DNA from: Actinomycetota bacterium
GTDB taxonomy: Bacteria > Actinomycetota > Actinomycetes > JACCUZ01
NCBI GenBank assembly: GCA_030841025.1
Contig: JAVEDJ010000239.1
Coordinates: 1-46,637 of the forward strand
DNA: 46,637 nt
Reading direction: 5' to 3'
Shown here: piece by piece, positions 14,621-31,071 of the stretch
How the letters are laid out: each line of letters opens with the position of its first letter
Position numbering within the stretch: the stretch's first letter is position 1
The notes under the pieces: model-generated
Told to the model about the DNA's origin: nothing
Database searches by the model: none
What the model saw: the letters and a program-made list of their open reading frames with translations, nothing else
Made by a program: the position numbers and the translations under genes

Positions 14621-15388
14621 TCACAGCTCCGGAGCCGGCAGGGCGAGGCCTTCCTGCTCGAGCCGGTTGACGTGAAATCGCCAGACGTTGATGTCGTTGA
14701 AGTTGCCACCGAGGTCGGGCAGCTCCGCGACGTCCTCGGGCGGCAGGACATCCGGCTTTGCGCCCACGCGCGCCAGGTCGAGGTTGATGCGCGCCAGGAC
14801 GTCGAGGTTCAGGGCGCGCACGACAGCCTGCTCGATGCTCTCGCCGCACGTCGTCACACCGTGGCCACGCAGCACGCAGACGGTCGAGCTCCCCATCGCC
14901 GCCAGCATCTCTTGCGCCAGCTCAGCGCGACGGATCAGTACCGACCGGCGGAAGACCGGTACAACGTCGAGGGCCATGCGGGCCGCAGGCATGTTGTAGG
15001 CGCCGAACACGGGGCGCAGCTCGATGTCGGCCAGTCCGGTGACCACCACGGCCGGGGGGTGCGCGTGCACCACCACCGACATGTCGTGTCGACGGCGCAG
15101 CAGCTCGGTGTGGATCGGCAGCTCGTTGGGGGCGGCATAACCGCCCTCGAGGTCCCCCTCGCCGTCGAAGTCGACGACCCGGACGTCCTCCGGGGTCGTG
15201 AACGTCAGCCCCCGTTCCCGAGGACCGCGGCATCGCACCAGCACGCGATCGCGACCGACCCGCACGCTGACGTGACCCAGCACGTCCTCGGCCAGCCCTC
15301 GGGCGCCGAGGATTCGGCAAGCGACGGCCACCTTGTGGCGCAGTGCCTCGAGCTCGTGACCCGTGACGTCGAGCCCGGTCTCAGCCAC
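14621..15388 (-). CDS. class II aldolase/adducin-domain protein (possible decarboxylase/aldolase)
   Basis: 'PIHTELLRRRHDMSVVVHAHPP' and 'LRGHGVTTCG' match class II aldolase metal-site blocks. GTG start overlaps the upstream stop by 8 nt. Confidence 0.8.
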   Translation of the reverse strand: MAETGLDVTGHELEALRHKVAVACRILGARGLAEDVLGHVSVRVGRDRVLVRCRGPRERGLTFTTPEDVRVVDFDGEGDLEGGYAAPNELPIHTELLRRRHDMSVVVHAHPPAVVVTGLADIELRPVFGAYNMPAARMALDVVPVFRRSVLIRRAELAQEMLAAMGSSTVCVLRGHGVTTCGESIEQAVVRALNLDVLARINLDLARVGAKPDVLPPEDVAELPDLGGNFNDINVWRFHVNRLEQEGLALPAPEL

Positions 15389-15896
15389 CCGCCGCCCGCC
15401 CGGCCTCCGTCAGCACCCGCTCGTCGCGGTCGGCCGCGAGCAGTGACCGCTCGCCCTTGTAGAGCGAGGCCAGCGCCAACGGACTGATGCCGAGCTCGCG
15501 TGCCACCTGGTGGATCTCGAGCTTGTGCATCCGTCCACCGGCCTGCGCGACACGGGTCAGCAGCTGCCGGACGGCCGGGGGATCAGCGACGTCGGGGTCG
15601 GACACCTCGGGCGAGTCAGCCAGCAGCGCGTCGAGCTGCCGCGAGAGCGCGCGCAGCGCAAGCCGTAGCCGCGTGGCCTCGTCAATCTCCCGCGGGGCGT
15701 CGACGGTGCCCTGCCAGGTGCGCTGGGGGTGTCGCCGGAGGTACTCCTCCTCCAGCTCGAGCATCCGCTCGGTGTGATGACGGAACTGGTCGCTGGTGCC
15801 GTGGTGGAACACCCAGTCACGGGTTGCGTGGGCATAGTTCGCCTGCTGGTCGAGCTCCTCGTCCGACAGCTCGCGGGCGGGTCTGGCTTGCTTCAC
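15381..15896 (-). CDS. hypothetical protein (helical N-domain, HTH-like C-terminal segment)
   Basis: The ORF overlaps both neighbours (GTGA with the ALDH stop, 8 nt with the aldolase start). GC3-rich codons. The 'LEIHQVARELGISPLALASLYKG' segment looks HTH-like. No enzyme motif recognised. Confidence 0.6.
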   Translation of the reverse strand: MKQARPARELSDEELDQQANYAHATRDWVFHHGTSDQFRHHTERMLELEEEYLRRHPQRTWQGTVDAPREIDEATRLRLALRALSRQLDALLADSPEVSDPDVADPPAVRQLLTRVAQAGGRMHKLEIHQVARELGISPLALASLYKGERSLLAADRDERVLTEAGRAAGG

Positions 15897-17365
15897 TGGG
15901 CACTCCTCCTCGGACCGGACGACGGCACCGGCACATCGTCGTGGATGGCCATCACGACTGCCTTCGGCTCGGTGAAGAACTCCCGGCTGAACGAGCCGCC
16001 CTCGCGGCCCACGCCGGAATCACCCACTCCGCCGAAGGGAGCACGCAGGTCGCGGATGAAGAAGCAGTTGGTCCACACGGTGCCGGCCTTGAGGGCCGCT
16101 GAGACCCGGTGCGCGCGAGACAGGTTCTCGGTGAAAAGCATGGCGTTCAGGCCGTACGGCGTGTCGTTGGCCAGTGCCACGGCCTCGGCCTCCGAGTCGA
16201 AGGGCTGTACGACGACGACCGGTCCGAACACCTCTTCCCGGTAGACCCGGGCGGTCGGCGGAGCGTGCACGACGGTGGGCCGGACGACCCAGCCGTCGTC
16301 GAGGCCACCGGCAAGGACCTCGCCGCCGTCTGCCTCGATCCCGTCGACGTACGACCGCACCTTCTTGTAGTGCTCTTCGGAGGCCAGTGGGCCGAGCTGG
16401 GTCGCGCGGTCCTTCGGGTCACCGAGCCGCAGGGCTGCCGCGGCCGCCGTGAAGCGCGCGAGGAACTCCGGCATCACGGAGCGCTCGACGAACAGCCGGC
16501 TGCCCGCCAGGCAGACCTGGCCGGCGTTCGAGAAGATGGCCTGCACCGACCACGGCACGGCGGTGTCGAGGTCCGCGTCCGCGAAGACGAGGTTCGCACC
16601 CTTGCCGCCGAGCTCGAGGCTCACCGGGGTGAGGTTCGCTGCTGCAGCGCGAGCGATGGCGCGACCCGTGCCGGACTCGCCGGTGAAGGTGATGCGGTCC
16701 ACCCGCGGATCCTCGGTGAGAGCCTGGCCCGCCGAGTCGGGGCCGAAGCCGTGCACGACGTTGAGCACGCCGGGCGGCATCCCCGCCTCCAGCGCCAGTC
16801 GAGCAAGCATCGTCGCCGAAGTGGGGGTGTCCTCGGCGGGCTTGAGCACGACGGTGTTGCCCCACGCCAGGGCCGGCGCCACCTTCCACGTCTCGAGCAT
16901 CAGCGGGAAGTTCCAGGGAGCGATGGCCGCGACGACACCGGCGGGCTCGAACCGGGTGTAGGCGTGGTGCCCGGTGTCCATCGGGAGCGCCTCCCCCGCG
17001 GCCAGCCGTGCATGGTCGGCGAAGAAGCGGAAGTTCAGGGCAGACCTCGGAACGTCCTTGCCCGTGCTGTCCGAGATGGGCTTTCCCATGTCGCGCGTGT
17101 CCGCGAGAGCGAGCTCTTCGGTGTGCTCCACCATCAGGTCGGCGAGGCGGTGCAGCACTGCCCCGCGTTCCGCGAAGCCCATCCGCGGCCAGGGGCCGTC
17201 GTCGAAGGCGCGGCGCGCTGCAGCGACAGCTCGGTCGGCCTCGCCCTGCCCTCCCAGGGCAACCTCGGCCCAGGCCTCTCGGGTCCAGGGGTCGACCGTG
17301 TGGAACCGGGCACCGCCTTCGGACTCGACCTCCTCGCCGTCAATGACGTGGGGCACCAGATCCAT
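15893..17365 (-). CDS. NAD(P)-dependent aldehyde dehydrogenase, 2-hydroxymuconate-semialdehyde dehydrogenase-like
   Basis: 'LELGGKG' and 'NAGQVCLAGSR' (catalytic Cys). Lies directly downstream of the 4-OT gene in the meta-pathway operon. Confidence 0.85.
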   Translation of the reverse strand: MDLVPHVIDGEEVESEGGARFHTVDPWTREAWAEVALGGQGEADRAVAAARRAFDDGPWPRMGFAERGAVLHRLADLMVEHTEELALADTRDMGKPISDSTGKDVPRSALNFRFFADHARLAAGEALPMDTGHHAYTRFEPAGVVAAIAPWNFPLMLETWKVAPALAWGNTVVLKPAEDTPTSATMLARLALEAGMPPGVLNVVHGFGPDSAGQALTEDPRVDRITFTGESGTGRAIARAAAANLTPVSLELGGKGANLVFADADLDTAVPWSVQAIFSNAGQVCLAGSRLFVERSVMPEFLARFTAAAAALRLGDPKDRATQLGPLASEEHYKKVRSYVDGIEADGGEVLAGGLDDGWVVRPTVVHAPPTARVYREEVFGPVVVVQPFDSEAEAVALANDTPYGLNAMLFTENLSRAHRVSAALKAGTVWTNCFFIRDLRAPFGGVGDSGVGREGGSFSREFFTEPKAVVMAIHDDVPVPSSGPRRSAQ

Positions 17366-17367
17366 GG

Positions 17368-17565
17368 CTAGCCATCCTTCCGCTGCTCTGCGATCGTAAT
17401 GTCGCCCGCCGCCCAGTGGGTGGCCGGAACCTCGCGCAGCACCACCCGCACGTTGGCTCGTGGGGCGCCGATGGCGCCTTCCACGGCGTCGGTCAGGGCG
17501 GTGATGAGCCCGCGCAGCTGCGCAGGGGTACGTCCCTCGACCAGGGTCACTTCCACAAGCGGCAC
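17368..17565 (-). CDS. dmpI: 4-oxalocrotonate tautomerase family protein
   Basis: GTG 17565 with a GGAGG RBS gives (M)PLVEVTLVEGRT..., the Pro-1 N-terminus typical of ~60-70 aa 4-OT enzymes. The longer 82-aa ORF was rejected. Confidence 0.75.
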   Translation of the reverse strand: MPLVEVTLVEGRTPAQLRGLITALTDAVEGAIGAPRANVRVVLREVPATHWAAGDITIAEQRKDG

Positions 17566-17566
17566 G

Positions 17567-18349
17567 TCAGCCTCCGTTGATGACGATCGATCCCAGGTGC
17601 GTGAAGTGTGCGGCAACGCGTGATCCTGGCGCCACGGCCACCGCGTCGGTCATACCGCCGGTCAGAACCACCCAGCCGGCCTCGAGCGCGTGGCCGCGCT
17701 CGCCCAGCGAGTTGGCGGCCATGGCCAGCGCCTCGCCGGGGTTGCCCTGGACCGCGGCCCCGGTCGCCGAGTCGACGACCTTGCCGTCGACCTCGAGCAG
17801 GCAGGCCTCCAACGAGAGGTCCAACGTGGCGGGAGGGCGGCCGACCGCTCCTGTCACGTAGTAGCCGGAAGAAGCGTTGTCAGCCACGACGTCGGGCAGC
17901 GTGAACCGGAAGTCGGCGTACCGGGAGTCGATGATCTCGATGCCTGCGTAGACCGTCTCGACCGCCCGCATGGCGGAGACGGCGGTCTCGCCGGGCCCCT
18001 GCAGCCGCTGGCCCAGCACGAACACCAGCTCAGGCTCCGCGCGGGGGTGGATCAGCCGGTCCTGCGGGACCGGCTCGCCCGCCGGGAGCACCATCGCATC
18101 GGTCAGCCATGCGGTCAGGGGCGTATCGACGTTCATCCGGCGCTGCTTGGCCCGCGACGTCAGACCGAGCTTGACGCCGACCAGCCGCTCTCCCCTGGCA
18201 AGCCGCCGGGCCAGCGCCTCGTCCTGGACGGCGTACGCCGTGGCCAGGTCGAGGTCGGGCCACTCGTCGGTGATCGGCCCCCGCTCGGCGCGAGTCCGCT
18301 CCGCCTCGAGCAGCACGTCGACCGCGCGGTCGACGTCCCAGTCGCTCAC
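17567..18349 (-). CDS. 2-oxopent-4-enoate hydratase / 4-oxalocrotonate decarboxylase family; its position after the aldolase suggests the decarboxylase
   Basis: '[12 protein letters not shown]...[12 protein letters not shown]' family block. GTGA overlap with the aldolase stop at 18346-18349. Gene order matches dmpEFGHI/xylJQKIH. Confidence 0.8.
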
Positions 18350-19404
18350 CGCGCACCCGCGGCGAGTGGCTCGCGCTCGCGCTCCTGCGCCAGCTGCAGC
18401 GCCACGTCGATGATCATGTCCTCCTGGCCACCGACGTACCCCGCCTCGCCGACGCGCTGCAGGATCTCGTGCGCCGGGACGCCGTAGCGGGCGGAGGCCC
18501 GCTCCGCGTGCAGCAGGAAGCTGGAGTAGACGCCGGCGTAGCCCTGGACGATCGAGGCGCGGTCCATCCACGGCAGCCGCGGGATGAACGGGCGTACGAC
18601 GTCCTCGGCCGCGGCGGCGGCGTGCTGCGGGTCCACTCCGGTGGTGATCCCGAGCCGGTCGAAGACCGCGGCCAGTACCTCGGTCGGGGAGTTCCCCGCG
18701 CCGGCACCGAGCGCGCACAACGCACCGTCGATCTGCTTGGCCCCGCTCTGGTAGGCCAGCACGGAGTTGGCGACCCCGAGGGAGAGGTTCTGGTGGCCGT
18801 GGAAGCCGACCTGCGCTTGGTCCCCTACCTCCTTCACCAGGGCCTGCACCCGCGCCTGGGCATCGCCCAGGACCAGGGCCCCGGCGGAGTCGACGACGTA
18901 GACGCACTCCGCCCCGGCGTCGACCATGATGCGCGCCTGACGCGCGAGGTTCTCCGGCGTCGTGCGGTGGGCCAGCATCAGGAAGCCCACCGTCTCCATG
19001 CCGAGGTCACGCGCTGCCCCGAAGTGCTGGATCGAGACGTCGGCCTCGGTGCAGTGCGTGGCGATGCGCGCTACCGAGGCACCGGCCGCGTGCGCCCGCT
19101 GCAGGTCCTCCACCGTGCCGAGACCGGGCAGCAGGAGTACGGCGATCTGGGCGCGCGTGGCCTCGTCGACGGCAGCCGCGATGAGCTCGATCTCGCTCTC
19201 GCGGGAGAAGCCGTAGTTGAAGGAGGAGCCGCCCAGCCCGTCACCGTGCGAGACCTCGACGACCTGCACGCCGGCGCCGTCCAGCGCGGAGACGGTGGCA
19301 CGCACCTGCTCTTCGGTGAACTGGTGCGCCATCGCGTGTGAGCCGTCGCGCAGCGTCGAGTCGGTGATCCGCAGGTCGAATGCCGCCGCGGGGGTCGCAG
19401 TCAT
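18346..19404 (-). CDS. dmpG: 4-hydroxy-2-oxovalerate aldolase
   Basis: '[12 protein letters not shown]', '[12 protein letters not shown]' and '[15 protein letters not shown]' are hallmark DmpG/MhpE blocks. Confidence 0.92.
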
Positions 19405-20300
19405 GCGGGTACCAGCTTTCCCTGGGCCAGCTGCTCGCCCACGCGAGCGGCAGCTGCGGTCATGATGTCGAGGTTGCCGGCGTACTCCGGCAGGTAGTCG
19501 CCGTTGCCACGGACCTCCAGGAAGACGGCCACGCGGGCGTTACCGGACCAGTCGTCGCGCGGCTCGTCGAACTGCGGGTCAGCCCGCAGCGCGTAGCCGG
19601 GCACGTACTCCTGCACCGCGGCGACCATCCGGGCCACCGACTCGGCGATCGCGTCGCGATCGGCGTCCGCCGGGATGGCGCAGAAGACCGTGTCCCGCAT
19701 GATCATCGGCGGCTCGACCGGGTTGAGGATGATGACCGCCTTGCCGCGCGCGGCTCCCCCGACGAGCTCGATCGCCCTCGAGGTCGTGGCGGTGAACTCG
19801 TCGATGTTGGCGCGCGTGCCGGGACCGGCAGAGCGCGAGGCGATCGAGGCGACGATCTCGGCGTACGGGACCGGGGCCACCCGGGAGACCGCGTGCACGA
19901 TCGGGATGGTGGCCTGCCCGCCGCACGTGATCATGTTGACGTTGGGGGCCGCAAGATGCTCGTCGAGGTTCACCGTCGGGCACACGAGCGGACCGATCAT
20001 GGCCGGGGTGAGATCGACAGCCTGGATGCCGGCCTCGGCGTACTTCGGCGCATTGGCCGCATGGGCCTTGGCGCTTGTTGCCTCGAAGACGATGCGCGGC
20101 GCGTCGGACTGGGCGAGCAACCAGTCGACGCCGCCGGCGGACGCCTCGACGCCGCGGGCTCGGGCCTTGGCGAGCCCGTCAGAGCTGGGGTCGACCCCCA
20201 CCATGTAGCCGACCTCGATGGCCGCCGACCGCTGCAGCTTCACCAACAGGTCGGTGCCGATGTTCCCCGGCCCGACGATCGCGGCCAATACCTTGCTCAT
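19401..20300 (-). CDS. dmpF: acetaldehyde dehydrogenase (acylating)
   Basis: '[12 protein letters not shown]', '[12 protein letters not shown]' (catalytic Cys) and 'GNLDIMT' are hallmark DmpF/MhpF blocks. Overlaps both neighbours by 4 nt. Confidence 0.92.
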
Positions 20301-21091
20301 GCGCTGTTCCTTCCGAATCGCGCCGTCACGGTGCCGAGGCCCGCAAAGACGGCGCTCCAGGTGTCACCGGGAGATGCCGGCTGGGCCGATGTCACCGAGC
20401 CCGGCAGCACGACCTGTCCGGGCTGGAGCACGACGCCGTGCTCCCCCACGGTGTTGGCCAGCCATGCGAGAGAGATGAGCGGCGAGCCCAGGACCGCGCC
20501 GCCGGCGCCCGTGGCCACGAGGTCACCGTTGCCGTACAGGTTGCAGCCAGCGAGACGCAGGTCGACGTCGGTGAGCCGCACCGGGCGGCTGCCCAGTACG
20601 ACGCCGCCGGACGAGGCATTGTCCGCGATGGTGTCGATGATGCTGATCTTCCAGTCCCGGATGCGCGAGTCGATGATCTCGAGTGCCGGCAGCACGAAGT
20701 CGACGGCGGCAGCAGCCTGGGCGACGGTGACACCGGGGCCGCGCAGCTCGCGGCCGAGGACGAAGGCGACCTCCGGCTCGACGCGCGGCGCGATGAACGT
20801 CCCAGCATCGATGGGATGGTGCTCGGGATAGAACATGTCGTCGCGCAGGACGCCGTAGTCGGGCTGGTCGACCCCCATCTGCCGCTGCATCGCCGCCGAT
20901 GTCAGGCCGACCTTGTGACCTTGCAGCACGCGCCCGTCGCGCTGCCAGGCCTCGACCTGCAGCTGTTGGACGGCGTAGGCGCCGGCGAGGTCCAGGTCCG
21001 GATGGCTCTGTACCAGCGGCGGGACCGCGACCCGCGACCCATACGCCCCGAGCAGGAGGTCCGCCGCCTCCTGGTGGGTTCCGTCACCCAT
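20297..21091 (-). CDS. 2-oxopent-4-enoate hydratase family; first gene of the operon, position suggests the hydratase
   Basis: '[12 protein letters not shown]...[12 protein letters not shown]' family block. ATGA overlap with the dmpF-like start. Confidence 0.8.
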
Positions 21092-21156: not shown

Positions 21157-21981
21157 GTGCGGTCCACTCAACGAGACGTCGGTCCGAAGTCGGTTCTGGG
21201 GCGAGCGTTCGCACTGCTCGGCTGCTTCACGGTTGCCGACGCAGAGCTGAGCCTGGCCGAGATGTCCGCCCGGACCGGCATCCCGAAGGCCACCGTCCAC
21301 CGGCTGGTCGGTCAGCTCGCGGAGTGGGGGGCGGTCGAGCAGACCCCCGCGGGCGTGCGCCTCGGCATGCGGCTCTTCGAGCTCGGGCAGCTGGCCCCGC
21401 GGCACCGTGACCTGCGCGAATCCGCGCTGCCGCACATGGAGGACCTGCTGCAGGCGACAGCCCACACGGTTCACCTGGCCGTGCTGGACGGGACCGAGGT
21501 GGTCTACCTCGAGAAGCTGACCGGCCGCGGCGGGCCGCCGTTGCCCTCCCGCGTCGGTGGCCGCATGCCCGCGCACTGCACCGGGGTCGGCAAGGCGCTG
21601 CTGGCGTTCTCGCCGACGGCGACCGTGGCCGAGGTCGCGGGGTCGGAGCTGGTCCGCCGTACCCCGCACACGGTCACGACCCCCGCTGCCCTGACGCGTG
21701 AGCTGGCCGACATCCGGCGCAGCGGGTTCGCCTACGACCGTGAGGAGTCCACCCCAGGAGTGGTGTGCGTGGCGTGCCCCGTGCTGGGTACGACGGGCGA
21801 TGTGGTGGCAGCGATCTCCATCAGCGGCTGGTCCAACCGGCTCGACACCGGCCGGGTCGCCTCCGCTGTGCGGACGGCTACCCTCTCGATCTCCCGTCAG
21901 CTGGGCGCGGGACGCTCCGCCGGCCCGCGACCGCCCTCCGGCGGCACTGCTTCCGCTTCCCCGTCCAGAGTATTACGCTAG
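21157..21981 (+). CDS. IclR-family transcriptional regulator
   Basis: 'LSLAEMSARTGIPKATVHRLVGQL' HTH and 'AISISG' effector-domain block. GTG 21157 is the only in-frame start upstream of the HTH after the divergent gene. Confidence 0.8.
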   Translation: MRSTQRDVGPKSVLGRAFALLGCFTVADAELSLAEMSARTGIPKATVHRLVGQLAEWGAVEQTPAGVRLGMRLFELGQLAPRHRDLRESALPHMEDLLQATAHTVHLAVLDGTEVVYLEKLTGRGGPPLPSRVGGRMPAHCTGVGKALLAFSPTATVAEVAGSELVRRTPHTVTTPAALTRELADIRRSGFAYDREESTPGVVCVACPVLGTTGDVVAAISISGWSNRLDTGRVASAVRTATLSISRQLGAGRSAGPRPPSGGTASASPSRVLR

Positions 21982-22046: not shown

Positions 22047-23087
22047 GTGAGCCCCGATGCGACCCTGGGCGACGAGCAGGGCTCGGCGACCCTGGCCGTC
22101 GACCTGCTCATCGTCGGGGCAGGCCCGGTCGGCCTGTTCGGCGCCTACTACGCGGGCTTTCGCGGCCTCAGCGTCGCGCTGATCGACGCGCTGCCTGAGG
22201 TCGGCGGTCAGATCAGCGCGATGTACCCGGAGAAGCTGATCCACGATGTCGCCGGCTTCCCCGCCGTGCGCGGCCGCGACCTCGTCCAGCACCTCGTCGA
22301 CCAGGCCGCGCCGTTCTCGCCGCGGTACCTCTTGGGCGAGCAGGCCTGCACGCTCTCCTACGACGAGGACGGCAGCGTGCTCGTCGGCACCGACCGCGGC
22401 CGCTCCGTGCATGCCCAGGCGGTCATCATCACCGGGGGCATCGGCTCCTTCAGCCCCCGACCACTGCCGACCGGGACGGAGTTCGAGGGCAGGGGGCTGC
22501 GCTACTTCGTGCGCGAGCTGGCTGAGCTCGCGGACCAGGACGTCATCATCGTCGGCGGCGGCGACAGCGCCTTCGACTGGGCCCAGAGCCTGGAGCCGCT
22601 GGCACGTTCGGTCACCCTCGTCCACCGCCGCAAGGCGTTCCGCGCGCACGAGCACACCGTCAAGCAGGTCCTGGCGTCGAACGTCGAGGTCGTCGTCGAC
22701 AGCCAGGTGACGGCGATCCGTGGCGACGCCCACGCCGACGCGGACGACGCGCACATCGACGAGGTCGAGATCACTCACGTGCCGACCAAGGAGGTGCGGG
22801 CGATCAAGGCGCAGGCAGTCGTGGCTGCACTCGGCTTCACGGCTGACCTCGGGCCGCTCCTCGAATGGGGACTCGAGATCTCCGAGCGGCACATCGTGGT
22901 CGACACCCGGATGGCGACCAACCAACCGCGCGTGTTCGCGGCGGGAGACATCACCGAGTACGTCGGCAAGGTGCGGCTCATCGCCGTCGGGTTCGGGGAG
23001 GTCGCCACCGCTGTCAACAACGCGGCGACGGTCCTGGACCCGAACGCCGCGCTGTTCCCCGGGCACTCGACCGAGGAAATGACCTAA
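22047..23087 (+). CDS. ferredoxin-NADP+ reductase, thioredoxin-reductase-like type
   Basis: 'IVGAGPVGLFGA', 'EVGGQISAMYPEK.IHDVAGFP' and 'VGGGDSAFDWA'. GTG 22047 is preceded by AAGGAG. Confidence 0.85.
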   Translation: MSPDATLGDEQGSATLAVDLLIVGAGPVGLFGAYYAGFRGLSVALIDALPEVGGQISAMYPEKLIHDVAGFPAVRGRDLVQHLVDQAAPFSPRYLLGEQACTLSYDEDGSVLVGTDRGRSVHAQAVIITGGIGSFSPRPLPTGTEFEGRGLRYFVRELAELADQDVIIVGGGDSAFDWAQSLEPLARSVTLVHRRKAFRAHEHTVKQVLASNVEVVVDSQVTAIRGDAHADADDAHIDEVEITHVPTKEVRAIKAQAVVAALGFTADLGPLLEWGLEISERHIVVDTRMATNQPRVFAAGDITEYVGKVRLIAVGFGEVATAVNNAATVLDPNAALFPGHSTEEMT

Positions 23088-23131: not shown

Positions 23132-23476
23132 ATGCCCTTTGTGATCGGCAGCCCGTGCATCGACGTCATGGACAAGTCGTGCACAGAGGAGTGTCCCGTC
23201 GACTGCATCTACGAAGGGGAACGGAAGCTGTACATCCACCCTGGCGAGTGCATCGACTGCGGGGCATGCGAGCCGGTTTGTCCGGTCGAAGCGATCTCTG
23301 TCGACCGTCGCCTCCCGGCGGAACAGGAAGTGCACAAGGCGGACAACGCAGCGTTCTTTGCGACCCCTCTGCCCGGGCGCGACGAGCCGATCGGCAGCCC
23401 GGGCGGCGCCCGGAAGCTGGGGCCGGTCGGCGTGGACACGCCCTTGGTGGCAGCGGCGGAGGCCGACGCCAGCTGA
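23132..23476 (+). CDS. fdxA: 7Fe-type ([3Fe-4S][4Fe-4S]) ferredoxin
   Basis: 'CIDVMDKSCTEECPVDC' and 'CIDCGACEPVCP' cluster motifs. GGAGGA RBS. Confidence 0.85.
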   Translation: MPFVIGSPCIDVMDKSCTEECPVDCIYEGERKLYIHPGECIDCGACEPVCPVEAISVDRRLPAEQEVHKADNAAFFATPLPGRDEPIGSPGGARKLGPVGVDTPLVAAAEADAS

Positions 23477-24812: not shown

Positions 24813-25073
24813 TCACTCGTGCGCCGGCTCGTGGGTCGTCACCCGCGCCGTGGGCTTCACGTCGAAGACGTAGCGGCACCTCTCGCACCACACATGGAAC
24901 AGCCGGGCGTCCGCCGTCCAGTACTCCTGGACGAAGGACTGCACATCCAGCTGCGCCCCGCAGTGCGGGCAGAACTGCACCAGTGCCTGCACGTTGTCGT
25001 CGATCGCAGTGGCCTCCCCCTCGAGGGGGGCGTTGGGGATCTCGGACACGCCTGCCTCCTTGGCGAACGACAT
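24813..25073 (-). CDS. small CxxC...CxxC (zinc-ribbon-like) protein of unknown function
   Basis: 86 aa with 'CPHC' (C35, C38) and 'CERC' (C63, C66). ATG starts 2 nt after the Rieske stop. GC3-rich codon pattern. Confidence 0.55.
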   Translation of the reverse strand: MSFAKEAGVSEIPNAPLEGEATAIDDNVQALVQFCPHCGAQLDVQSFVQEYWTADARLFHVWCERCRYVFDVKPTARVTTHEPAHE

Positions 25074-25074: not shown

Positions 25075-26352
25075 TCAGACGGTCGCGTCGTGGTGCTCGG
25101 TATCGCTGGCCGGAAGGCTCTTCTCTGCCTCTTCGAACAGTCGGAGCACGTCCTGCGCGATCGGACTGTAACGGCACTGTCCCATGGTCAGGAACTCGTA
25201 GCGGAAGCCTGCTCCGGTGCCGAACTTCTTCTTCTCCTGCGGCAGCGTGATGCAGTCGTTGATGCTCTCGTCGCGCACCACGCCCAACGGGTCCTCGCCG
25301 TCCTCGACCTTGTCCAGCTGCTCCTGGAAGAGGCGGCGCAACATGATGACGCCGAGGTCGGACTTGCCGAGATGCTCGTTGGAGCGGTCGGCGATGGCCC
25401 CTTGGCTCGCCCACGCCATGACGTCCTGGCCGTCGACGAAGTCGACGAGGAAGTCGCCCTTCTCGTCGTAGATCGGGACCTCGAACAGCGGGATCGAGTC
25501 CTGCGGCGGCACGGTGTAGTCGCCGTCAGGCTTGTAGACGTCGTACCAGAAGTGCGAGGTGTGGGTGTCGTCCACGGGGACCCGGATCTGGAACTGGTAG
25601 TGACCGCCGCCCCCGACCCGCAGCATCGCGGGGAACACCAGCGGGTGCCCCACCTTCCAGTCCTCGTCCTCCTCGGTCATGCCTTCGAGCACTCGCCGCT
25701 TGATGATCCCGTAGTCGAAGACGTCAAAGGCGACCTTCTCGTGCTTGCGCATCAGCACCTCGGCCTGCGCCTCGCCCGAGATGCCACGCACGAAGTTCAT
25801 GTAGTGCCCGTGCAGCCACTCGACGTGGTGCGGGTCGACGGAGTTCTCCATCACCTGAAGCCAGTTCATCGGCAGCAGGGCATGGCCCACGTCGCGCAGG
25901 CAGTTGTCCCAGACGAACAGGTCGAACCTCGGCAGCAGCGGCGCTGGGTCCTCACCCATGTAGACGAAGATCAGGCCGCCGAGCTCCTGGGCCTGGTACG
26001 TAACGGCCTGGATGCGGTCCTTGAACGTGCTGTCCGCGGGCTCCGCCGGCTGCTCGAGGCACTTGCCGTCCATGCCGTAGAGCCATCCGTGGTAGCCGCA
26101 CCGGATGCCGCGCTCCTCGACGATCGCGTAGCGCATCGAGGCACGGCGGTGCGGACACTGGGCCTCGATGACACCGATCTCGTCGCCCTTGCGGTACAGC
26201 ACGATGTCCTCGCCCAGCAGCCGGCGCTGGATCGGCTCTGGGCCGAGCTCTGACGTGGCGGCGAGGGGGTACCAGTAGTGACGGAGCAACGTGCCCATCG
26301 GCGTGCCCGGCCCTACCTGGGTCAGCCGCTCGTTCAACTCGGTCGTCAGCAT
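25075..26352 (-). CDS. Rieske [2Fe-2S] non-heme-iron oxygenase, single-subunit phthalate-family type
   Basis: 'CPHRRASMRYAIVEERGIRCGYHGWLY' Rieske CxH...CxxH. 'NWLQVMENSVDPHHVEWLH' mononuclear-iron motif. No beta-subunit gene is adjacent. Confidence 0.9.
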   Translation of the reverse strand: MLTTELNERLTQVGPGTPMGTLLRHYWYPLAATSELGPEPIQRRLLGEDIVLYRKGDEIGVIEAQCPHRRASMRYAIVEERGIRCGYHGWLYGMDGKCLEQPAEPADSTFKDRIQAVTYQAQELGGLIFVYMGEDPAPLLPRFDLFVWDNCLRDVGHALLPMNWLQVMENSVDPHHVEWLHGHYMNFVRGISGEAQAEVLMRKHEKVAFDVFDYGIIKRRVLEGMTEEDEDWKVGHPLVFPAMLRVGGGGHYQFQIRVPVDDTHTSHFWYDVYKPDGDYTVPPQDSIPLFEVPIYDEKGDFLVDFVDGQDVMAWASQGAIADRSNEHLGKSDLGVIMLRRLFQEQLDKVEDGEDPLGVVRDESINDCITLPQEKKKFGTGAGFRYEFLTMGQCRYSPIAQDVLRLFEEAEKSLPASDTEHHDATV

Positions 26353-26397: not shown

Positions 26398-27249
26398 TCA
26401 GCTGAAGAACCCGGCCACGTGCCGCTGGAAGTCCTCTGCCCGTTCGATCTGCGTCCAATGCCCACACCGGTGGAAGACCACCAGGTCCGCGGACGGCAGA
26501 ATGTGCAGCAGCCGCTGGCTGGTGGCTTCCAGGGGAATGATCTGGTCGTCGCGGCCATGGATCAGGAGCGTCGGGGTCTGGATGCTCGCCAGCTCGTCCT
26601 CGGTGAGCGCCATCGCCGTGATGTGGCGCTGACGTGGGGCGGCGAAGGCCGTGGCGTAACGCTCCTGGACGTCACCTACCTCGGTCGCCCGGAAACGCAG
26701 CTCGATCAGCTCGTCGGTCACGAGGCCCTGATCATAGGCGAACAGTCGCATGAGGGCGGCCATGTTGTCGTGGGAGGGCGTGTAGCCCCAGACCCGGTCC
26801 AGCCCTTCCGTGATCGGGAAGTCGATGCCGACAGCGCCCATCAGGACCATGCGGCGGATCCGCTCGGGATGGCGGTGCGCCAGCGCGAGGGCGAGCGCGC
26901 CGCCCATCGAGTTGCCCACCACATCGACCTGGTCCAGGCCCAGCGCGTCGAGGAAGCCGAGCAGGTGCCGGACCCGGGTGTCATGGTCGAGCTCGACACC
27001 GTCCGCCGCCCGCGTCTCGCCGAAGCCCACGACGTCGGGTGCCAGGAGCCGGCGGCCGTCAGCCAGCGGGGAGCGCATCAGCCCCTGCCAGTTGGCCCGA
27101 CCGGACACGCCTGGCCCCGACCCGTGGATCAACAGGACGGGCGGCCCGTCCGAGACCCCCGACTCGAGGTAGTGGGTGTCGAACGGGCCGTGCTGGACCC
27201 GGTCCTGCCGAAGGTCGTCGACGGCCGGCGTCGTGGAGGTGGCGGTCAC
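26398..27249 (-). CDS. alpha/beta-fold meta-cleavage-product hydrolase (XylF/DmpD/BphD-like)
   Basis: 'LLIHGSGPGVS', 'GNSMGG' nucleophile elbow and 'HRCGHWTQIE' catalytic His region. Confidence 0.85.
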   Translation of the reverse strand: MTATSTTPAVDDLRQDRVQHGPFDTHYLESGVSDGPPVLLIHGSGPGVSGRANWQGLMRSPLADGRRLLAPDVVGFGETRAADGVELDHDTRVRHLLGFLDALGLDQVDVVGNSMGGALALALAHRHPERIRRMVLMGAVGIDFPITEGLDRVWGYTPSHDNMAALMRLFAYDQGLVTDELIELRFRATEVGDVQERYATAFAAPRQRHITAMALTEDELASIQTPTLLIHGRDDQIIPLEATSQRLLHILPSADLVVFHRCGHWTQIERAEDFQRHVAGFFS

Positions 27250-28319
27250 GTACTCGGGTGATAGGCCGCGAAGACCTTGTTCGAGTTGAAGATGCCGGTC
27301 TCGGCGAAGTTCGACCAGGCGGGGACCTTCTGACCCAGCGCCTCCATCGCGCCCAGCAGCGGGAACCAGTTCAACAGCTCTTGCTGTCCTGCTCCCTCGA
27401 TCTCCTCCAACGACGTGGATCGCCAGGCGTCGAGGTCACCGCTGGTCATGGCGTCGTACAGCCGCCGGTCGCTGGGGGTGTCCGGTCGCAACCGCCAGGT
27501 GCGGTCGCAGATGAAGGCGTGCGACCAGCTCGACGAGGCGAGCAGCGCGATCCGCCAGGGCGACTCGGCACAGATCCGACCGACCTCGGCGCCGACGTCC
27601 ATCAGCCGAGCCGGCGTCGGGGAAGGCGGGTCCAGCTCGCGGATGTCGTCGAAGGGCGCCATGAACCCTTGGTAGCTGACCACACGACGGCCGTAGCAGT
27701 TGATCGGGAACGGTACGACGGGGTAGTCGAACCCCCGGCGGTGGTAGTCGAGGTAGAGCACGGCGTTGAGGAACGCGTGCGGCAGGCCGGGGTGGTGCAG
27801 CTGCTTGTAGGCGTAGGCCACGTCGACGCCACGGCCCATCAGCTCGGACACGATGTGCTTGCCGATGTCCGGGCGTCCCTTGACCGTGAACGCGGTATCG
27901 CCGCTCTCGCCCCAGACGTTGGGCCGACCCTTCATGTCGGAGGACTCCGCAGCGTGTGCCCAGGGGCGGACCTCGATGTCGTCGTAGGCCAGCACGGCGT
28001 ACGGCGGGATGAGGTCTTCCTTGAAGTTCTCGTACTGGTCGTCGCCCCAGATCACGATGGCATCGGGCTGGAAGTCATCGATCGCCGCACGGACGTCCTC
28101 GAAGCCCTTGATCAGCGCCGCCCGGTGGTCGGCCGCCGCGGCGCGGCCCTCGTCATCGGCCCATTCACGCCTGGCGATCTCCGGCCAGTTGGCGACGTCC
28201 TTCTCCGCCTCCGGGATGCCGGGATCCTCGAGGATGCGGCGCAGGATGCCCGCCATGTCCTCGTCGAGCCCGCTGAACGGGGGGTAGTGGGACAGCCCTA
28301 CGCCGAGAACCTCACCCAT
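27246..28319 (-). CDS. class III (LigB-superfamily) extradiol ring-cleavage dioxygenase, single polypeptide
   Basis: 'GVGLSHYPP', 'VIWGDDQYENF' and 'SSSWSHAF' resemble MhpB/LigB-type blocks. ATG 28319 has GGAGG 7 nt upstream. The 15-codon upstream extension was rejected. Confidence 0.75.
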   Translation of the reverse strand: MGEVLGVGLSHYPPFSGLDEDMAGILRRILEDPGIPEAEKDVANWPEIARREWADDEGRAAAADHRAALIKGFEDVRAAIDDFQPDAIVIWGDDQYENFKEDLIPPYAVLAYDDIEVRPWAHAAESSDMKGRPNVWGESGDTAFTVKGRPDIGKHIVSELMGRGVDVAYAYKQLHHPGLPHAFLNAVLYLDYHRRGFDYPVVPFPINCYGRRVVSYQGFMAPFDDIRELDPPSPTPARLMDVGAEVGRICAESPWRIALLASSSWSHAFICDRTWRLRPDTPSDRRLYDAMTSGDLDAWRSTSLEEIEGAGQQELLNWFPLLGAMEALGQKVPAWSNFAETGIFNSNKVFAAYHPST

Positions 28320-28480: not shown

Positions 28481-29056
28481 GTGTCACATCAAGGGCGCGC
28501 ACGCACGGAGGCCGATTCGACGACCGGAGAGGGCGACCCGGCGTCGACCGTGCCGTGGCAGGTCTCTCGTGCGGCAGCCGAACACGGAGCGGACTTCGAC
28601 CCGAGCGTCCTGTCGCTCACGCTGACCCTCTACCGCGCCATGTCCGCGTTCGACCGGGCCGGCCAGGCCGAGCTCGCCCCACACGGGCTGAGCGTGAGCC
28701 AGCTCAACATCCTGACCGTTCTGCACCGGGCCGACAGCCCGCTGACGATGGGCGAGCTGGGCCACGCCGTGTCCGTTCGCCCCGCCAACCTCACCAGCGT
28801 CGTGGACGCGCTGACCCAGCGCTCACTCATTGAGCGGCGGGTCAACCCCGGCGACCGCCGGTCCTATCTCATCGCGAACACGCCTGCCGGCGACGACTTC
28901 CTGGTGCGCTTCCTGCCGAGCCACTGGCGCTACCTCGAGACCTTGACCAGTGACCTGAGCAGCGAGGAGCGCATGCTGCTGACCGATCTGCTCGAGCGCC
29001 TCCGCGTCTCCGCCGAGGCTGCTCCCGGGAGCGAGCCCGTCCGGATGGCCGAGTGA
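28481..29056 (+). CDS. MarR-family transcriptional regulator
   Basis: 'LSVSQLNILTVLHRADSPLTMGELGHAVSVRPANLTSVVDALTQRSLIERRVNPGDRRS' winged HTH. GTG 28481 follows AAGGAGG. Confidence 0.8.
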   Translation: MSHQGRARTEADSTTGEGDPASTVPWQVSRAAAEHGADFDPSVLSLTLTLYRAMSAFDRAGQAELAPHGLSVSQLNILTVLHRADSPLTMGELGHAVSVRPANLTSVVDALTQRSLIERRVNPGDRRSYLIANTPAGDDFLVRFLPSHWRYLETLTSDLSSEERMLLTDLLERLRVSAEAAPGSEPVRMAE

Positions 29057-30066
29057 GCGCATCGCCCGTCGGTTCGGGGGCGCCCCGTGTCGACGTCCAC
29101 ACACATGCCATCCCGCCGCAGCTCCCTCGTCTCGCGGAGCGGTACGCCGGGTCCTGGCCCTCACTGGTCGCGACGGGCCCCTGCACCGCAGACCTGCTGC
29201 TGGGCGAGGACTTCTTCCGGGCCCTCGACGACCGCTGCTGGGACGCCCGCCGGCGCATCGAGGACATGGACGCCGAGCAGGTGGCGGTCCAGGTCGTCTC
29301 GCCGATCCCCGTGACGTTCTCCTACCGGCTGCCGGCCGACGGGGTGACCGAGCTGGCCCGCGTGCAGAACGAGTGGATCGCCGAGCTCGTGCGCGACACC
29401 CCGGACCGCTTCGTCGGACTCGGCACCGTTGCGTTGCAGGACCCTGCGGCTGCCGCCAGCTCGGTCATCGAGTGCATCACCACGTTCGGGCTGCGCGGCA
29501 TCGAGATCGGCAGCAACGTCGATGGGCTGGCCCTCGACGACCCGGCGCTCGAGGACTTCTGGGCCGCCTGCGCCGACACCGGAGCGGTCGTGCTCGTGCA
29601 CCCATGGCAGGTTCTCGGCGAGGAGCGGCTCGGGCGGCACGGACTGCTCTACTCCGTGGGCATGCCCGCCGAGACAGCTGCCGCTGCCGCGACGCTGATG
29701 CTCGGTGGTGTGTTGGACCGCCACCCCGCCCTCCGCGTCGTGCTCGCGCACGGCGGCGGCGCTCTGCTGGCGATGCTGCCGCGTATCGAGCGGTGCCTCA
29801 CGATGCTGCCGGGCATGACACCGCCTGCACTCGCACCGCGCGAGTACTTGCGCCGGTTCTGGTACGACTCGCTCGTCTACGACCCGGGCACCGTTCACTC
29901 GCTGGTGCGGGCCGTCGGTGCCGACCGGGTGATGGTCGGCAGCGACTATCCCTTCCCCATCGCCGAGCGACCCGTCGGCAGCGGCGTCCTGGCCGCGGGC
30001 TTGGCCGACGAGGAGCAGACCGCGGTCCTCACCGGGACTGCGGCCGACCTGTTCGGCCTTCGCTGA
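29053..30066 (+). CDS. amidohydrolase_2 / ACMSD-family non-oxidative decarboxylase
   Basis: 'VDVHTHAIPP' HxH, 'CWD...RIEDMD...VQVVSPIPVTFSY', 'VLVHPW' and 'GSDYPFP' are collinear with ACMSD-type enzymes. GTGA overlap with the MarR stop. Confidence 0.8.
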   Translation: MSASPVGSGAPRVDVHTHAIPPQLPRLAERYAGSWPSLVATGPCTADLLLGEDFFRALDDRCWDARRRIEDMDAEQVAVQVVSPIPVTFSYRLPADGVTELARVQNEWIAELVRDTPDRFVGLGTVALQDPAAAASSVIECITTFGLRGIEIGSNVDGLALDDPALEDFWAACADTGAVVLVHPWQVLGEERLGRHGLLYSVGMPAETAAAAATLMLGGVLDRHPALRVVLAHGGGALLAMLPRIERCLTMLPGMTPPALAPREYLRRFWYDSLVYDPGTVHSLVRAVGADRVMVGSDYPFPIAERPVGSGVLAAGLADEEQTAVLTGTAADLFGLR

Positions 30067-30075
30067 GCCGAACCC

Positions 30076-31071
30076 TCAGACCTTCGCGTCGGTCAACGTG
30101 GCCGGGAGGAACAGGTCCGCCGGGTCCAGTGGCCGGGACGTGAACCCCTGCTCGTGGGCGTAGCGCAGCAGGGTGGTCAGCGCGGCCCGGTTGGCATCCA
30201 CGCCGTAGGCGAAGGCATCGCCCAGCAGCGCGGCCTCCTCCTCGGCGTACGCCGACTCCCAGACCAGCGAGGAGAAGCACACCGCGGAGTCCCGCAGGGC
30301 TGGGCCGGCCTGGGCCCGGGCGACCTCGAAGGCGTGCCGCAGGTTGTTGGCGATCCAGGGGTGCTCCTCGACGAGCGCCTTCTTGAGCACCACGACATGC
30401 ATCAGCGGGATGATCCCGGTCTTCTCGAAGAAGCCGCGCTCCTCTGCGCGGTAGTCGGGAAAGACTCGCCGGATGCGCCGATCGCCCTTGAGGAAGAGGG
30501 TCGGTGGTCGAGCGGTGATGAGGGCGTCGATGCCACCCTCCAGCAGCTGATCGGTCAACGTCATCGACGCATCGATCGGGTCCACCCGGAACCGGCTCGG
30601 CGGCGTCACCCGTGACTTCTCCTGGCGCCCGGGCTCCTCCAGCCCGCCGGTGCGCCAGTGGACGCTCTCGAGATCGAGCCCGTAGTGCTCGCCGAGGAGG
30701 CCGCGCATCCAAAGCGATGCGGTCATGCTCCACTCAGGCGTGCCGATCGAGCGCCCCGACAGGTCGTCCGGGCGCTGCACGTCGGAGTCGGCGCGGACGT
30801 AGAACGCCGAGTGACGAAAGGCGCGGGAGGGGAAGACCGGGATCGCGCAGAAGGGACCGTCCGCCTGCTCGACGCCGGCGATGAAGGCCCCGAAGGAGAA
30901 CTCGGCCGCGTCGAACTCGCCGTACCTCCCTTGACGCCAGAACAGCTCCTCGATGCCGGTCTGCAGGTAACGCAGATCGACGCCCTCCACCTGCACGTCG
31001 CCGGTGTACAGCGCCCTCGTGCGGTCATAGACCGCACCGGCGTAGGTGACTGGAACGGGGCGACGGGTCAC
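30076..31071 (-). CDS. 4,5-dihydroxyphthalate-decarboxylase-like protein (cytoplasmic NMT1/SsuA-fold)
   Basis: 'YDRTRALYTGDVQVEGVDL', 'FCAIPVFPSRAFRHSAFYVR' and 'WRTGGLEEPG' fit my recollection of the Pht5/OphC family. No signal peptide. GTG 31071 with an AGGAG RBS. Confidence 0.65.
   Translation of the reverse strand: MTRRPVPVTYAGAVYDRTRALYTGDVQVEGVDLRYLQTGIEELFWRQGRYGEFDAAEFSFGAFIAGVEQADGPFCAIPVFPSRAFRHSAFYVRADSDVQRPDDLSGRSIGTPEWSMTASLWMRGLLGEHYGLDLESVHWRTGGLEEPGRQEKSRVTPPSRFRVDPIDASMTLTDQLLEGGIDALITARPPTLFLKGDRRIRRVFPDYRAEERGFFEKTGIIPLMHVVVLKKALVEEHPWIANNLRHAFEVARAQAGPALRDSAVCFSSLVWESAYAEEEAALLGDAFAYGVDANRAALTTLLRYAHEQGFTSRPLDPADLFLPATLTDAKV

Follow-up and report, generated by a model that had tools for sequence, protein, structure and literature searches.

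Among the major pollutants derived from plastics are phthalates and related aromatic diacids, which also arise as intermediates in the breakdown of polycyclic aromatic hydrocarbons. In the textbook account the 4,5-route belongs to Gram-negatives and the 3,4-route to Gram-positives, both leading to protocatechuate, which then undergoes ortho or 4,5-cleavage. A 46,637-nucleotide stretch of DNA from an Actinomycetota bacterium (contig JAVEDJ010000239.1 of GenBank assembly GCA_030841025.1), referred to here as the window, raises the question of whether an actinomycete can join 4,5-type phthalate genes to a decarboxylating meta-cleavage pathway. The initial annotation predicted such a hybrid pathway between positions 14621 and 31071, with phthalate-type 4,5-dioxygenation feeding the 2,3-cleavage of protocatechuate. 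The analysis presented here suggests, tentatively and at a little below an even chance, that the genes from 14621 to about 38021 make up one catabolic island predicted to degrade a benzene-dicarboxylate (o-phthalate or a close relative) by the steps outlined below. From the prediction, the 4,5-type dehydrogenase and decarboxylase were retained, as was the pairing of a LigB-type dioxygenase with a decarboxylase resembling 2-amino-3-carboxymuconate-semialdehyde decarboxylase (ACMSD), while the Rieske oxygenase proved not to be an ortholog of phthalate 4,5-dioxygenase.

In the proposed route the acid would be taken up by an ABC importer and/or an EamA-family protein and converted to a cis-dihydrodiol by a three-component oxygenase, consisting of the Rieske protein, possibly a zinc-ribbon protein, an FdxA-type ferredoxin and a thioredoxin-reductase-like (TrxR-like) reductase (Table 1). 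A Gfo/Idh/MocA dehydrogenase would re-aromatise the diol to a dihydroxy-dicarboxylate, from which an NMT1-fold decarboxylase would remove one carboxyl group to give a dihydroxybenzoate, most likely protocatechuate. A predicted class III extradiol dioxygenase would then open the ring adjacent to the diol (2,3-cleavage), with the ACMSD-like enzyme removing the second carboxyl group to yield 2-hydroxymuconate semialdehyde (HMS). This could be processed either through a branch of dehydrogenase, 4-oxalocrotonate tautomerase (4-OT) and 4-oxalocrotonate decarboxylase (4-OD) or through a CumD-like hydrolase branch, before a hydratase, an aldolase and an acylating dehydrogenase would complete the conversion to pyruvate and acetyl-CoA. 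Of this reading, the sequences themselves show family membership, conserved catalytic residues and conserved linkage.

The window has a G+C content of about 70% and reading frames were chosen by third-position G+C and verified against the gene calls of three actinomycete metagenome-assembled genomes (MAGs) encoding an identical Rieske protein (GCA_025965375.1, GCA_030841065.1 and GCA_030841005.1). The island comprises five transcription units lying on both strands. The first runs on the minus strand from 21091 to 14621 and encodes the hydratase, acylating acetaldehyde dehydrogenase, DmpG-type aldolase, 4-OD, 4-OT, an aldehyde dehydrogenase, a DUF6158 protein and a class II aldolase-family protein, with the hydratase, acetaldehyde dehydrogenase and aldolase in dmpEFGHI order. 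Divergent from this lower-pathway operon, the second unit (plus strand) carries genes for an IclR regulator, the TrxR-like flavoprotein and the ferredoxin. Converging on it is the third, on the minus strand from 28319 to 23519, with the LigB-like, alpha/beta hydrolase, Rieske, zinc-ribbon and Gfo/Idh/MocA genes, while the fourth (plus strand) is divergent from the LigB-like gene and encodes a MarR regulator followed by the ACMSD-like protein. The fifth occupies the minus strand between about 38021 and 30076 and encodes an NMT1-type binding protein, permease and ATPase, a cupin, a EutA-family protein, an EamA protein and the NMT1-fold decarboxylase-like protein. Domain searches of the window proteins recovered all seven families named in the initial annotation at the positions it gave. 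Its interval was correct for the genes it listed, omitting seven others inside the same boundaries (those for the class II aldolase-family protein, DUF6158, IclR, the TrxR-like reductase, the FdxA-type ferredoxin, the zinc-ribbon protein and MarR), and the functional unit runs some 7 kb further to the right.

Upper pathway enzymes

The Gfo/Idh/MocA dehydrogenase was matched in the Protein Data Bank (PDB) to 7wzd (E 1.2e-79, residues 9-387) and 3moi (E 2.2e-80), while the next Gfo-family structure outside this dehydrogenase subfamily scored just 7e-19. Full-length similarity thus separates the window protein from other Gfo/Idh/MocA enzymes, in keeping with its proposed kinship to phthalate 4,5-dihydrodiol dehydrogenase. 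For the NMT1-fold protein the sole PDB match was 4,5-dihydroxyphthalate decarboxylase 9jp7 (E 3.9e-64, 220 bits, residues 25-345 against 24-344), and the YDRTRAL motif on which its comparison with 4,5-dihydroxyphthalate decarboxylase had been based is present. Full-text literature searches found no paper on the structure of a 4,5-dihydroxyphthalate decarboxylase. The dehydrogenase and decarboxylase are about 42% and 40% identical, respectively, to homologs in a proteobacterial phthalate dioxygenase (PDO) cluster on an Acidovorax plasmid. Sequence comparison therefore strongly supports assigning both proteins as specific relatives of solved 4,5-route enzymes, and this is the best-supported part of the earlier proposal. 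On the plasmid in question (Acidovorax carolinensis pACP3.2, locus L093), the decarboxylase and dehydrogenase homologs at 10361-11291 and 13322-14475 match piecewise in different frames and have no entry in the gene table of the plasmid, which may reflect pseudogenes with frameshifts or simply gaps in an incomplete PLSDB annotation.

The class II aldolase-family protein, which was overlooked when the 4,5-route was first proposed, is a homolog of PhtC, an enzyme of the 3,4-route. It scores well above the cutoff of its NCBIfam model (Table 1) and shares 53% identity with the PhtC protein of Arthrobacter keyseri pRE1, while no 3,4-dioxygenase is encoded beside it in the window. The PhtC homolog and the DUF6158 gene close the lower operon only in this species and both are absent from the compact cluster of a Micromonosporaceae MAG (L007). 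Other class II aldolases in related loci are just 27-31% identical to the PhtC homolog and lie at other positions.

The best PDB matches of the Rieske protein were PDO_KF1 (7fjl, 168 bits), RO_CH34 and isophthalate dioxygenase. It contains a Rieske domain (62.6 bits), and D173, H176, H181 and D310, which align with D178, H181, H186 and D343 of PDO, are invariant in 41 homologs, as expected of an enzyme with a CxH...CxxH Rieske cluster and a His-His-Asp mononuclear iron site. A PDO ortholog matches the Pfam LigXa_C model end to end (559.5 bits over model positions 1-301), whereas the window protein reaches 64 bits, with its best stretch confined to 206-260, and so represents a distant branch of the PDO/LigXa family. 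It is most likely a ring-dihydroxylating dioxygenase, with a sequence that does not identify phthalate as the substrate.

In each of the contexts looked at (L005, L007, L008, L086, L087, L094, L095 and L096), the Rieske gene is followed by a small zinc-ribbon open reading frame (ORF). These ORFs encode proteins of 67-86 amino acids with a CxxC...CxxC arrangement and a conserved QEYW motif, and may represent an unrecognised small subunit or assembly factor of the oxygenase. The electron donors are probably the FdxA-type ferredoxin, presumably of the 7Fe-carrying type, and the TrxR-like reductase. Within the Rieske operon of the distantly related locus L087 (11486-12874), a reductase and an adjacent ferredoxin are 65% and 72% identical to the window copies. 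To our knowledge a TrxR-like reductase paired with FdxA does not occur in the usual classes of Rieske oxygenase. The possibility that the window ferredoxin and reductase are homologs of PhtAc and PhtAd was rejected, as neither gave a match.

Predicted ring cleavage and second decarboxylation

The LigB-like protein gave a weak Pfam match (Table 1) and no sequence match in the PDB, and its fold was assessed from an AlphaFold2 model (pLDDT 86.6, pTM 0.90). The top 31 Foldseek matches to this model were all class III enzymes (LigB, DesB, DHPAO, MhpB and APD), the best being LigB (1bou_B, E 8.5e-13), and profile alignment with hhalign to the fused LigAB of A. keyseri pRE1 gave a probability of 95%. 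Residues H11, H65, H267 and E314 are invariant in 32 members of the LigB-like family. Two of these, H267 (in SSSWSH) and E314 (in QQELLNW), fall opposite the GGMSH and IELVDW motifs in the fused LigAB, which we take to hold the catalytic His and the iron-binding Glu; the N-terminal His residues lie outside the range of the alignment.

Among the candidates scored, 3,741 proteins belonged to the LigB-like clade at an E-value of at most 1e-5, all carrying generic names and spanning 53-92% identity across Actinomycetes, Burkholderiales, Acidimicrobiia, Rokubacteria and others. When the neighbouring ORFs of 79 LigB-like loci were clustered, Amidohydro_2 proteins were the commonest (32 loci), followed by the alpha and beta subunits of two-subunit Rieske oxygenases (21 and 19), SDR proteins (21), hydratase/4-OD proteins (20) and aldehyde dehydrogenases (14). 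Flanks were complete at 40 loci, of which 23 carried a gene for an Amidohydro_2 protein or a class II aldolase within 8 kb and 20 carried one for an aromatic-acid-type Rieske alpha subunit. The LigB-like gene has a MarR gene as its neighbour at many loci of actinobacteria and at some of betaproteobacteria. The neighbouring Rieske alpha subunits are of the benzoate/anthranilate (aromatic acid) type; they were considered as phthalate 3,4-dioxygenases and rejected, being 26-35% identical to PhtAa and below all cutoffs. This pattern fits the cleavage of a carboxylated catechol with subsequent decarboxylation of the product, and the predicted combination of LigB-type dioxygenase, ACMSD-type decarboxylase and HMS lower pathway is borne out by a pairing conserved across phyla.

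This logic of carboxy-catechol cleavage plus decarboxylation is so far known from just one Paenibacillus (pra) and two Pseudomonas (opa, dhb) examples. Tentatively, and with rather more doubt than conviction, the LigB-like clade together with an ACMSD-like or class II aldolase partner may represent a widespread route of this kind, fed in the present case by a three-component variant of the 4,5-type phthalate pathway with a new zinc-ribbon-accompanied Rieske clade, a 7Fe ferredoxin and a TrxR-like reductase.

On plasmid pANTQ-1 of Sphingobium sp. AntQ-1 (L092), a gene at 64086-65174 annotated as hypothetical protein encodes a 57%-identical LigB-like protein. Its neighbours encode a class II aldolase, a dehydrogenase of the PdxA family (which we take to include TphB), a benzoate-type Rieske pair, a hydrolase, a catechol 2,3-dioxygenase and an HMS dehydrogenase. 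The gene lies just outside the region covered by the published analysis of this anthraquinone degrader, which does not mention it. In Pseudonocardia hydrocarbonoxydans (L091) the LigB-like gene is first in an operon with genes for a two-subunit Rieske oxygenase, an NMT1-type ABC importer, an MFS transporter, an SDR protein, a small ferredoxin (Fer4_13/15) and a Reductase_C-type FAD reductase, with MarR and class II aldolase genes divergent. The layout resembles the pht operon, with an alpha subunit just 30% identical to PhtAa.

The ACMSD-like protein was matched to human and Pseudomonas ACMSD with E-values from 1e-59 to 1e-61 (best 4e-61; 210 bits to the bacterial and 203 bits to the human enzyme). 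The positions aligned with the HxH, His, Asp and two Arg residues of ACMSD are all conserved. We take the Asp to be a metal ligand and the two Arg to bind carboxylates, and the position aligned with what we take to be the catalytic His is kept as well. Alignment to 2hbv revealed that DVHTH, FFR, VHPW, AHGGG, PRIE and GSDYPF are kept, as expected of a member of the ACMSD family, in which His9, His11 and His177 are the zinc ligands (PMC6362003). The hydrolase, whose gene shares its first 4 bases with the end of the LigB-like gene, is closest to CumD (2d0d, E 1.8e-77, 263 bits), with BphD and HsaD at about 136 bits, and is therefore of the monocyclic meta-cleavage-product type that suits an HMS hydrolase branch.

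The simplest guess for the central intermediate is protocatechuate, since the NMT1-fold and PhtC homologs both yield it in their characterised forms, and no other protocatechuate dioxygenase is present among the window genes. Cleavage at the 2,3-position is favoured because only the 2,3-cleavage product would decarboxylate to HMS. We infer this position, as we do the protocatechuate intermediate, the identity of the substrate and the redox partners. Precedents for the predicted pair of activities include PraA and PraH acting on protocatechuate (2,3-cleavage), and OpaC/OpaD and DhbA/DhbB acting on 2,3-dihydroxybenzoate, with the decarboxylase being either ACMSD-like or a class II aldolase (PMC6362003).

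Support for the proposed route and its alternatives

A number of observations weigh against degradation of a phthalate through the 2,3-cleavage of protocatechuate. The source is a MAG of an uncultured soil actinomycete and all functional statements are predictions from sequence and gene context. The proposed scheme assigns no role to the PhtC homolog or to the DUF6158, cupin and EutA-like genes. The Rieske protein, first placed in the phthalate family, shares just 29% identity with PDO over its full length. Structural work on PDO has identified Arg207 and Arg244 as essential and Ser179, Ser182, Phe278, Phe280 and Phe339 as pocket residues (PMC8649396). At Ser179, Ser182, Arg244, Phe278, Phe280 and Phe339, alignment with MAFFT and HMMER places Pro, Val, Val (with an adjacent Lys), His, Trp and Val in the window protein, while the counterpart of Arg207 is ambiguous, being Arg202 in the HMMER alignment and a gap in that of MAFFT. 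The replaced positions are nearly invariant over 41 members of the Rieske clade, including those in quite different contexts, and therefore say little about phthalate. The LigB-like protein is about 15% identical to any solved class III enzyme and its clade has no characterised member; at 357 amino acids it is larger than PraA (about 290 amino acids from an 881-bp gene; PMC13254512), the two being compared by size only. ACMSD naturally acts on a compound isosteric with what cleavage of 2,3-dihydroxybenzoate yields (the 3-carboxy product) and not with what 2,3-cleavage of protocatechuate yields (the 5-carboxy product), so that the regiochemistry may differ from the one proposed. A route of the 2,3-dihydroxybenzoate type matches the gene content equally well.

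That route would keep the same architecture around a different centre, with 2,3-dihydroxybenzoate or another carboxy-catechol undergoing distal (3,4-) cleavage and the ACMSD-like enzyme decarboxylating 3-carboxy-2-hydroxymuconate semialdehyde as in opa, dhb and cmt, perhaps starting from isophthalate, terephthalate or a substituted or tri-carboxylated benzene. The ACMSD-like protein retains both aligned Arg positions, which we take to bind the carboxylates of a 3-carboxy substrate. The same decarboxylation is performed by the ACMSD-family OpaD in strain PTH10 and by the class II aldolase DhbB in MT1 (PMC6362003), and the LigB-like clade occurs with either decarboxylase family. Likewise, the hydrolase is nearest to CumD, the substrate of which is that of the cmt hydrolase, the active site of the Rieske protein is not PDO-like, and the two or three types of decarboxylase in the island would suit a more carboxylated substrate. 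Set against this, the dehydrogenase and NMT1-fold decarboxylase are specifically related to enzymes of 4,5-dihydroxyphthalate metabolism, with protocatechuate as the product, which PhtC likewise yields, and no known 2,3-dihydroxybenzoate-forming enzyme was recognised. Distal cleavage is on balance unlikely, although it is the alternative to be taken most seriously.

A different role for the Rieske protein would be as a monooxygenase or O-demethylase of the LigXa/VanA kind, acting on a methoxylated lignin-derived aromatic acid, with the LigB-like enzyme cleaving the catechol product and the Gfo and NMT1-fold proteins serving other steps. The Rieske clade contains more than 6,000 proteins, many of which, including homologs at 55-65% identity, carry the name 5,5'-dehydrodivanillate (DDVA) O-demethylase. 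However, these names are automatic, and PDO is itself a core member of LigXa_C (559 bits) from which the window protein is distant (64 bits), such that the label cannot separate demethylase from dioxygenase and was rejected as evidence. A homolog at 63% identity in Amycolatopsis alkalitolerans lies directly upstream of catBAC with no dehydrogenase gene, implying the formation of catechol in the absence of a diol dehydrogenase. On the other side, the Rieske gene is co-transcribed with a homolog of the Gfo dehydrogenase in all relatives of at least 71% identity and in L087 at 59%. An O-demethylase is thus improbable. Homologs at 58-63% identity (L086, L095 and L096), the nearest out-group, have no dehydrogenase nearby and lie in unrelated contexts, marked by a divergent PEP-utiliser/PPDK_N pair, a histidine phosphatase, an HAD hydrolase and a Fer2-type reductase; this looks like an undescribed pathway making catechol.

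Reading the island as a single catabolic route finds its broadest support in linkage across genomes. The same gene set in largely the same order, at 56-92% protein identity, was found in an actinomycete MAG (L005), the Micromonosporaceae MAG (L007), Pseudonocardia benzenivorans JCM 12694 (L008), Pseudonocardia sp. K10HN5 (L088) and a metagenome contig (L094), giving at least six other genomes when the distant version in L087 is counted. In L007 fifteen core genes are contiguous in 15 kb with nothing intervening, in the order EamA, decarboxylase, hydratase, acetaldehyde dehydrogenase, aldolase, 4-OD, 4-OT, aldehyde dehydrogenase, ACMSD-like, MarR, LigB-like, hydrolase, Rieske, zinc-ribbon and Gfo. 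The core set is retained despite rearrangements in L005, L008, L088 and L094, and the NMT1-fold decarboxylase gene is found, linked to the EamA gene, in L005, L007, L008 and L088. L087 carries homologs of the Rieske, zinc-ribbon, Gfo, decarboxylase, Amidohydro_2, hydrolase, reductase, ferredoxin, hydratase, acetaldehyde dehydrogenase and aldolase genes, with a VOC-type extradiol enzyme in place of the LigB-like protein; that one step is filled by a non-orthologous enzyme while the rest of the set matches makes a good case for a single route. The opposing possibility is that independent modules have come to lie together by chance, namely an upper pathway of the phthalate type, a generic meta pathway for catechol and some unrelated genes, with no single flux through them. 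In its favour, the island consists of five transcription units on both strands, the accessory PhtC homolog, DUF6158, cupin and EutA-like genes vary between genomes, and the LigB-like gene occurs in many unrelated contexts. The recurrence of the linkage, preserved through rearrangement in five loci and re-assembled with a different extradiol enzyme in L087, argues that the co-occurrence is not chance; in addition each proposed step has a gene and no core enzyme is left over. Chance juxtaposition is accordingly very improbable.

Of the accessory genes, those for the cupin and the EutA-family protein (a full-length match) lie in the same unit as the EamA and decarboxylase genes and are conserved in L005 and L088. 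No ethanolamine ammonia-lyase genes were found near the EutA-family gene. The cupin was considered as a 3-hydroxyanthranilate dioxygenase and rejected, since its 361 amino acids contain Cupin_2 only, with no 3-HAO domain and faint similarity to gentisate/5-aminosalicylate dioxygenases. In keeping with this, a nitrobenzoate or kynurenine-type route, in which the ACMSD-like protein would be a true ACMSD fed by cleavage of 3-hydroxyanthranilate, is scarcely credible in spite of its similarity to bacterial and human ACMSD and the nearby cupin gene, as neither a 3-hydroxyanthranilate dioxygenase nor a RidA-type or other 2-aminomuconate deaminase (the genes named beforehand as pointing to this route) was recognised among the window proteins, 4-OT is present when the amino route needs none, and many genomes pair the ACMSD-like enzyme with a dioxygenase of the LigB type.

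Relation to known pathways and genes outside the core

Like the proteobacterial phthalate 4,5-pathway (OphA2/Pht3, Pht4/OphB and Pht5/OphC; 7fjl, 7wzd and 9jp7), the predicted upper pathway has an NMT1-fold decarboxylase and a Gfo/Idh/MocA dehydrogenase from the same subfamily, and its Rieske oxygenase, also single-subunit, falls in the same broad family. It differs in the divergence and replaced substrate-binding residues of the oxygenase, in using a separate 7Fe ferredoxin and TrxR-like reductase rather than a one-protein PDR reductase, in the zinc-ribbon ORF beside the oxygenase gene, in its actinomycete host and in having meta-cleavage downstream instead of pca/lig. With the actinobacterial 3,4-pathway (pht/pad of A. 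keyseri pRE1, Terrabacter, Mycobacterium and Rhodococcus) it shares the PhtC homolog, an IclR regulator related to PhtR and a three-component electron supply, while it has no two-subunit PhtAa/Ab oxygenase, the ferredoxin and reductase are unrelated to PhtAc/PhtAd and the dehydrogenase is of another family.

The lower part parallels the pra pathway of Paenibacillus sp. JJ-1b (praRABEGFDCHI), in which extradiol cleavage is followed by decarboxylation by an ACMSD-family enzyme and by a dehydrogenase, 4-OT, 4-OD, hydratase, aldolase and acetaldehyde dehydrogenase. The hydrolase branch of the window has no counterpart in the pra operon (PMC12455638), which is fed by a 4-hydroxybenzoate hydroxylase instead of a Rieske, dehydrogenase and decarboxylase module. 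The opa (Pseudomonas sp. PTH10), dhb and cmt systems likewise join phthalate to meta-cleavage, with the ring-fission product decarboxylated by the ACMSD-family OpaD or by the class II aldolases DhbB and CmtD and with both HMS dehydrogenase and hydrolase branches present. The opa system, however, relies on a 2,3-dioxygenase of two subunits, an SDR dehydrogenase that also decarboxylates and an extradiol enzyme of type I (VOC), as opposed to the single-subunit oxygenase, Gfo dehydrogenase, separate aromatic decarboxylase and class III extradiol enzyme of the window.

While every enzyme family involved is already known, their combination is a mix not described in the literature searched, and the statement that it is new for actinobacteria agrees with the full-text searches, which found no such description. 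Nor did these searches find a natural route from phthalate through protocatechuate to 2,3-cleavage, and a 2026 review of three aerobic o-phthalate routes describes no link to protocatechuate 2,3-cleavage (PMC13040137). Beyond the route itself, the findings of note are the large uncharacterised extradiol clade with its decarboxylase partnership, the unusual redox pair and a new Rieske clade accompanied by a zinc-ribbon protein. Should the route be correct, actinomycetes too would carry a 4,5-type upper pathway and a very widespread and unstudied extradiol dioxygenase clade would gain a function. Protocatechuate-type intermediates would then be routed through a decarboxylating meta route to pyruvate and acetyl-CoA, with a different carbon yield of relevance to the valorisation of plastic and lignin. 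The cultured carriers Pseudonocardia sp. K10HN5 and P. benzenivorans JCM 12694 make the cluster experimentally accessible.

Table 1. Genes of the island, with positions in the window, and copies of the zinc-ribbon ORF at other loci
Feature	Position	Strand	Evidence and remarks
Class II aldolase-family decarboxylase, PhtC homolog	14621..15388	-	NCBIfam NF053537 327.8 bits (cutoff 200); accessory, outside conserved core
DUF6158 protein, no assigned function	15381..15896	-	Pfam PF19655 51.5 bits
2-Hydroxymuconate-semialdehyde dehydrogenase-like aldehyde dehydrogenase	15893..17365	-	Pfam Aldedh; NCBIfam HpaE, OH_muco_semi_DH about 520 bits, under equivalog cutoffs
4-OT	17368..17565	-	Pfam Tautomerase; 65-aa gene in MAG records
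4-OD-like, FAA_hydrolase fold	17567..18349	-	Pfam FAA_hydrolase; 260-aa gene call
4-Hydroxy-2-oxovalerate aldolase, DmpG type	18346..19404	-	Pfam HMGL-like and DmpG_comm
Acylating acetaldehyde dehydrogenase, DmpF type	19401..20300	-	Pfam AcetDehyd-dimer 210 bits
2-Hydroxypenta-2,4-dienoate hydratase-like	20297..21091	-	Pfam FAA_hydrolase; first gene of lower-pathway operon
IclR-family regulator	21262..21981	+	MAG gene call with HTH_IclR, IclR_C; 33% identity to pRE1 PhtR
TrxR-like FAD reductase	22047..23087	+	Pfam Pyr_redox_2; NCBIfam TRX_reduct 138.8 bits, under cutoff
FdxA-type ferredoxin	23132..23476	+	NCBIfam NF045480 FdxA_Actino 151 bits (cutoff 125)
Gfo/Idh/MocA putative cis-dihydrodiol dehydrogenase, 419 aa	23519..24778	-	PDB 7wzd, 3moi matches
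Zinc-ribbon protein, 86 aa, CxxC...CxxC	24813..25073	-	Sequence; partner ORF kept with this Rieske clade
Single-subunit Rieske oxygenase, distant PDO/LigXa family member	25075..26352	-	Pfam Rieske and weak LigXa_C
Meta-cleavage-product hydrolase, monocyclic CumD/TodF/XylF-like type	26398..27249	-	PDB CumD 2d0d
Class III LigB-fold extradiol dioxygenase, 357 aa; predicted carboxy-catechol (protocatechuate) cleaving	27246..28319	-	Pfam LigB 53.7 bits (weak)
MarR-family regulator	28481..29056	+	Pfam MarR; divergent from LigB-like gene
ACMSD-family decarboxylase; predicted carboxy-2-hydroxymuconate-semialdehyde decarboxylase	29053..30066	+	Amidohydro_2; PDB ACMSD
NMT1/PBP-fold putative decarboxylase, 4,5-dihydroxyphthalate decarboxylase homolog	30076..31071	-	PDB 9jp7; YDRTRAL motif
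EamA-family membrane transporter	31106..32062	-	Pfam EamA
EutA-family ATPase, accessory	32055..33692	-	Pfam EutA 378 bits; NCBIfam EutA models under cutoff
Cupin protein, 361 aa, accessory	33689..34774	-	Cupin_2 alone
ABC importer: ATPase, permease, NMT1/SsuA-type binding protein	34850..38021	-	Pfam BPD_transp_1, NMT1; ABC_tran gene call in locus L001; upstream of cupin gene
Zinc-ribbon ORF copies at other loci	L086 10248-10463; L087 10296-10529; L094 4911-5168; L095 10262-10501; L096 10227-10430		

On either side of the island lie genes of other kinds. The left part of the window (1-14484) is a polysaccharide-type cluster encoding an epimerase/dehydratase, three glycosyltransferases, a heparinase II/III-like protein, two APH-type kinases and a UDP-glucose/GDP-mannose dehydrogenase, followed by two HisKA_3 histidine kinases (10625-12199 on the plus strand and 12874-14484 on the minus strand). 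To the right, 39660-46637 (minus strand) and 37908-39275 (plus strand) encode hydantoinase B and A proteins of the oxoprolinase/acetone-carboxylase family, a zinc alcohol dehydrogenase, an aldehyde dehydrogenase and an MFS transporter.

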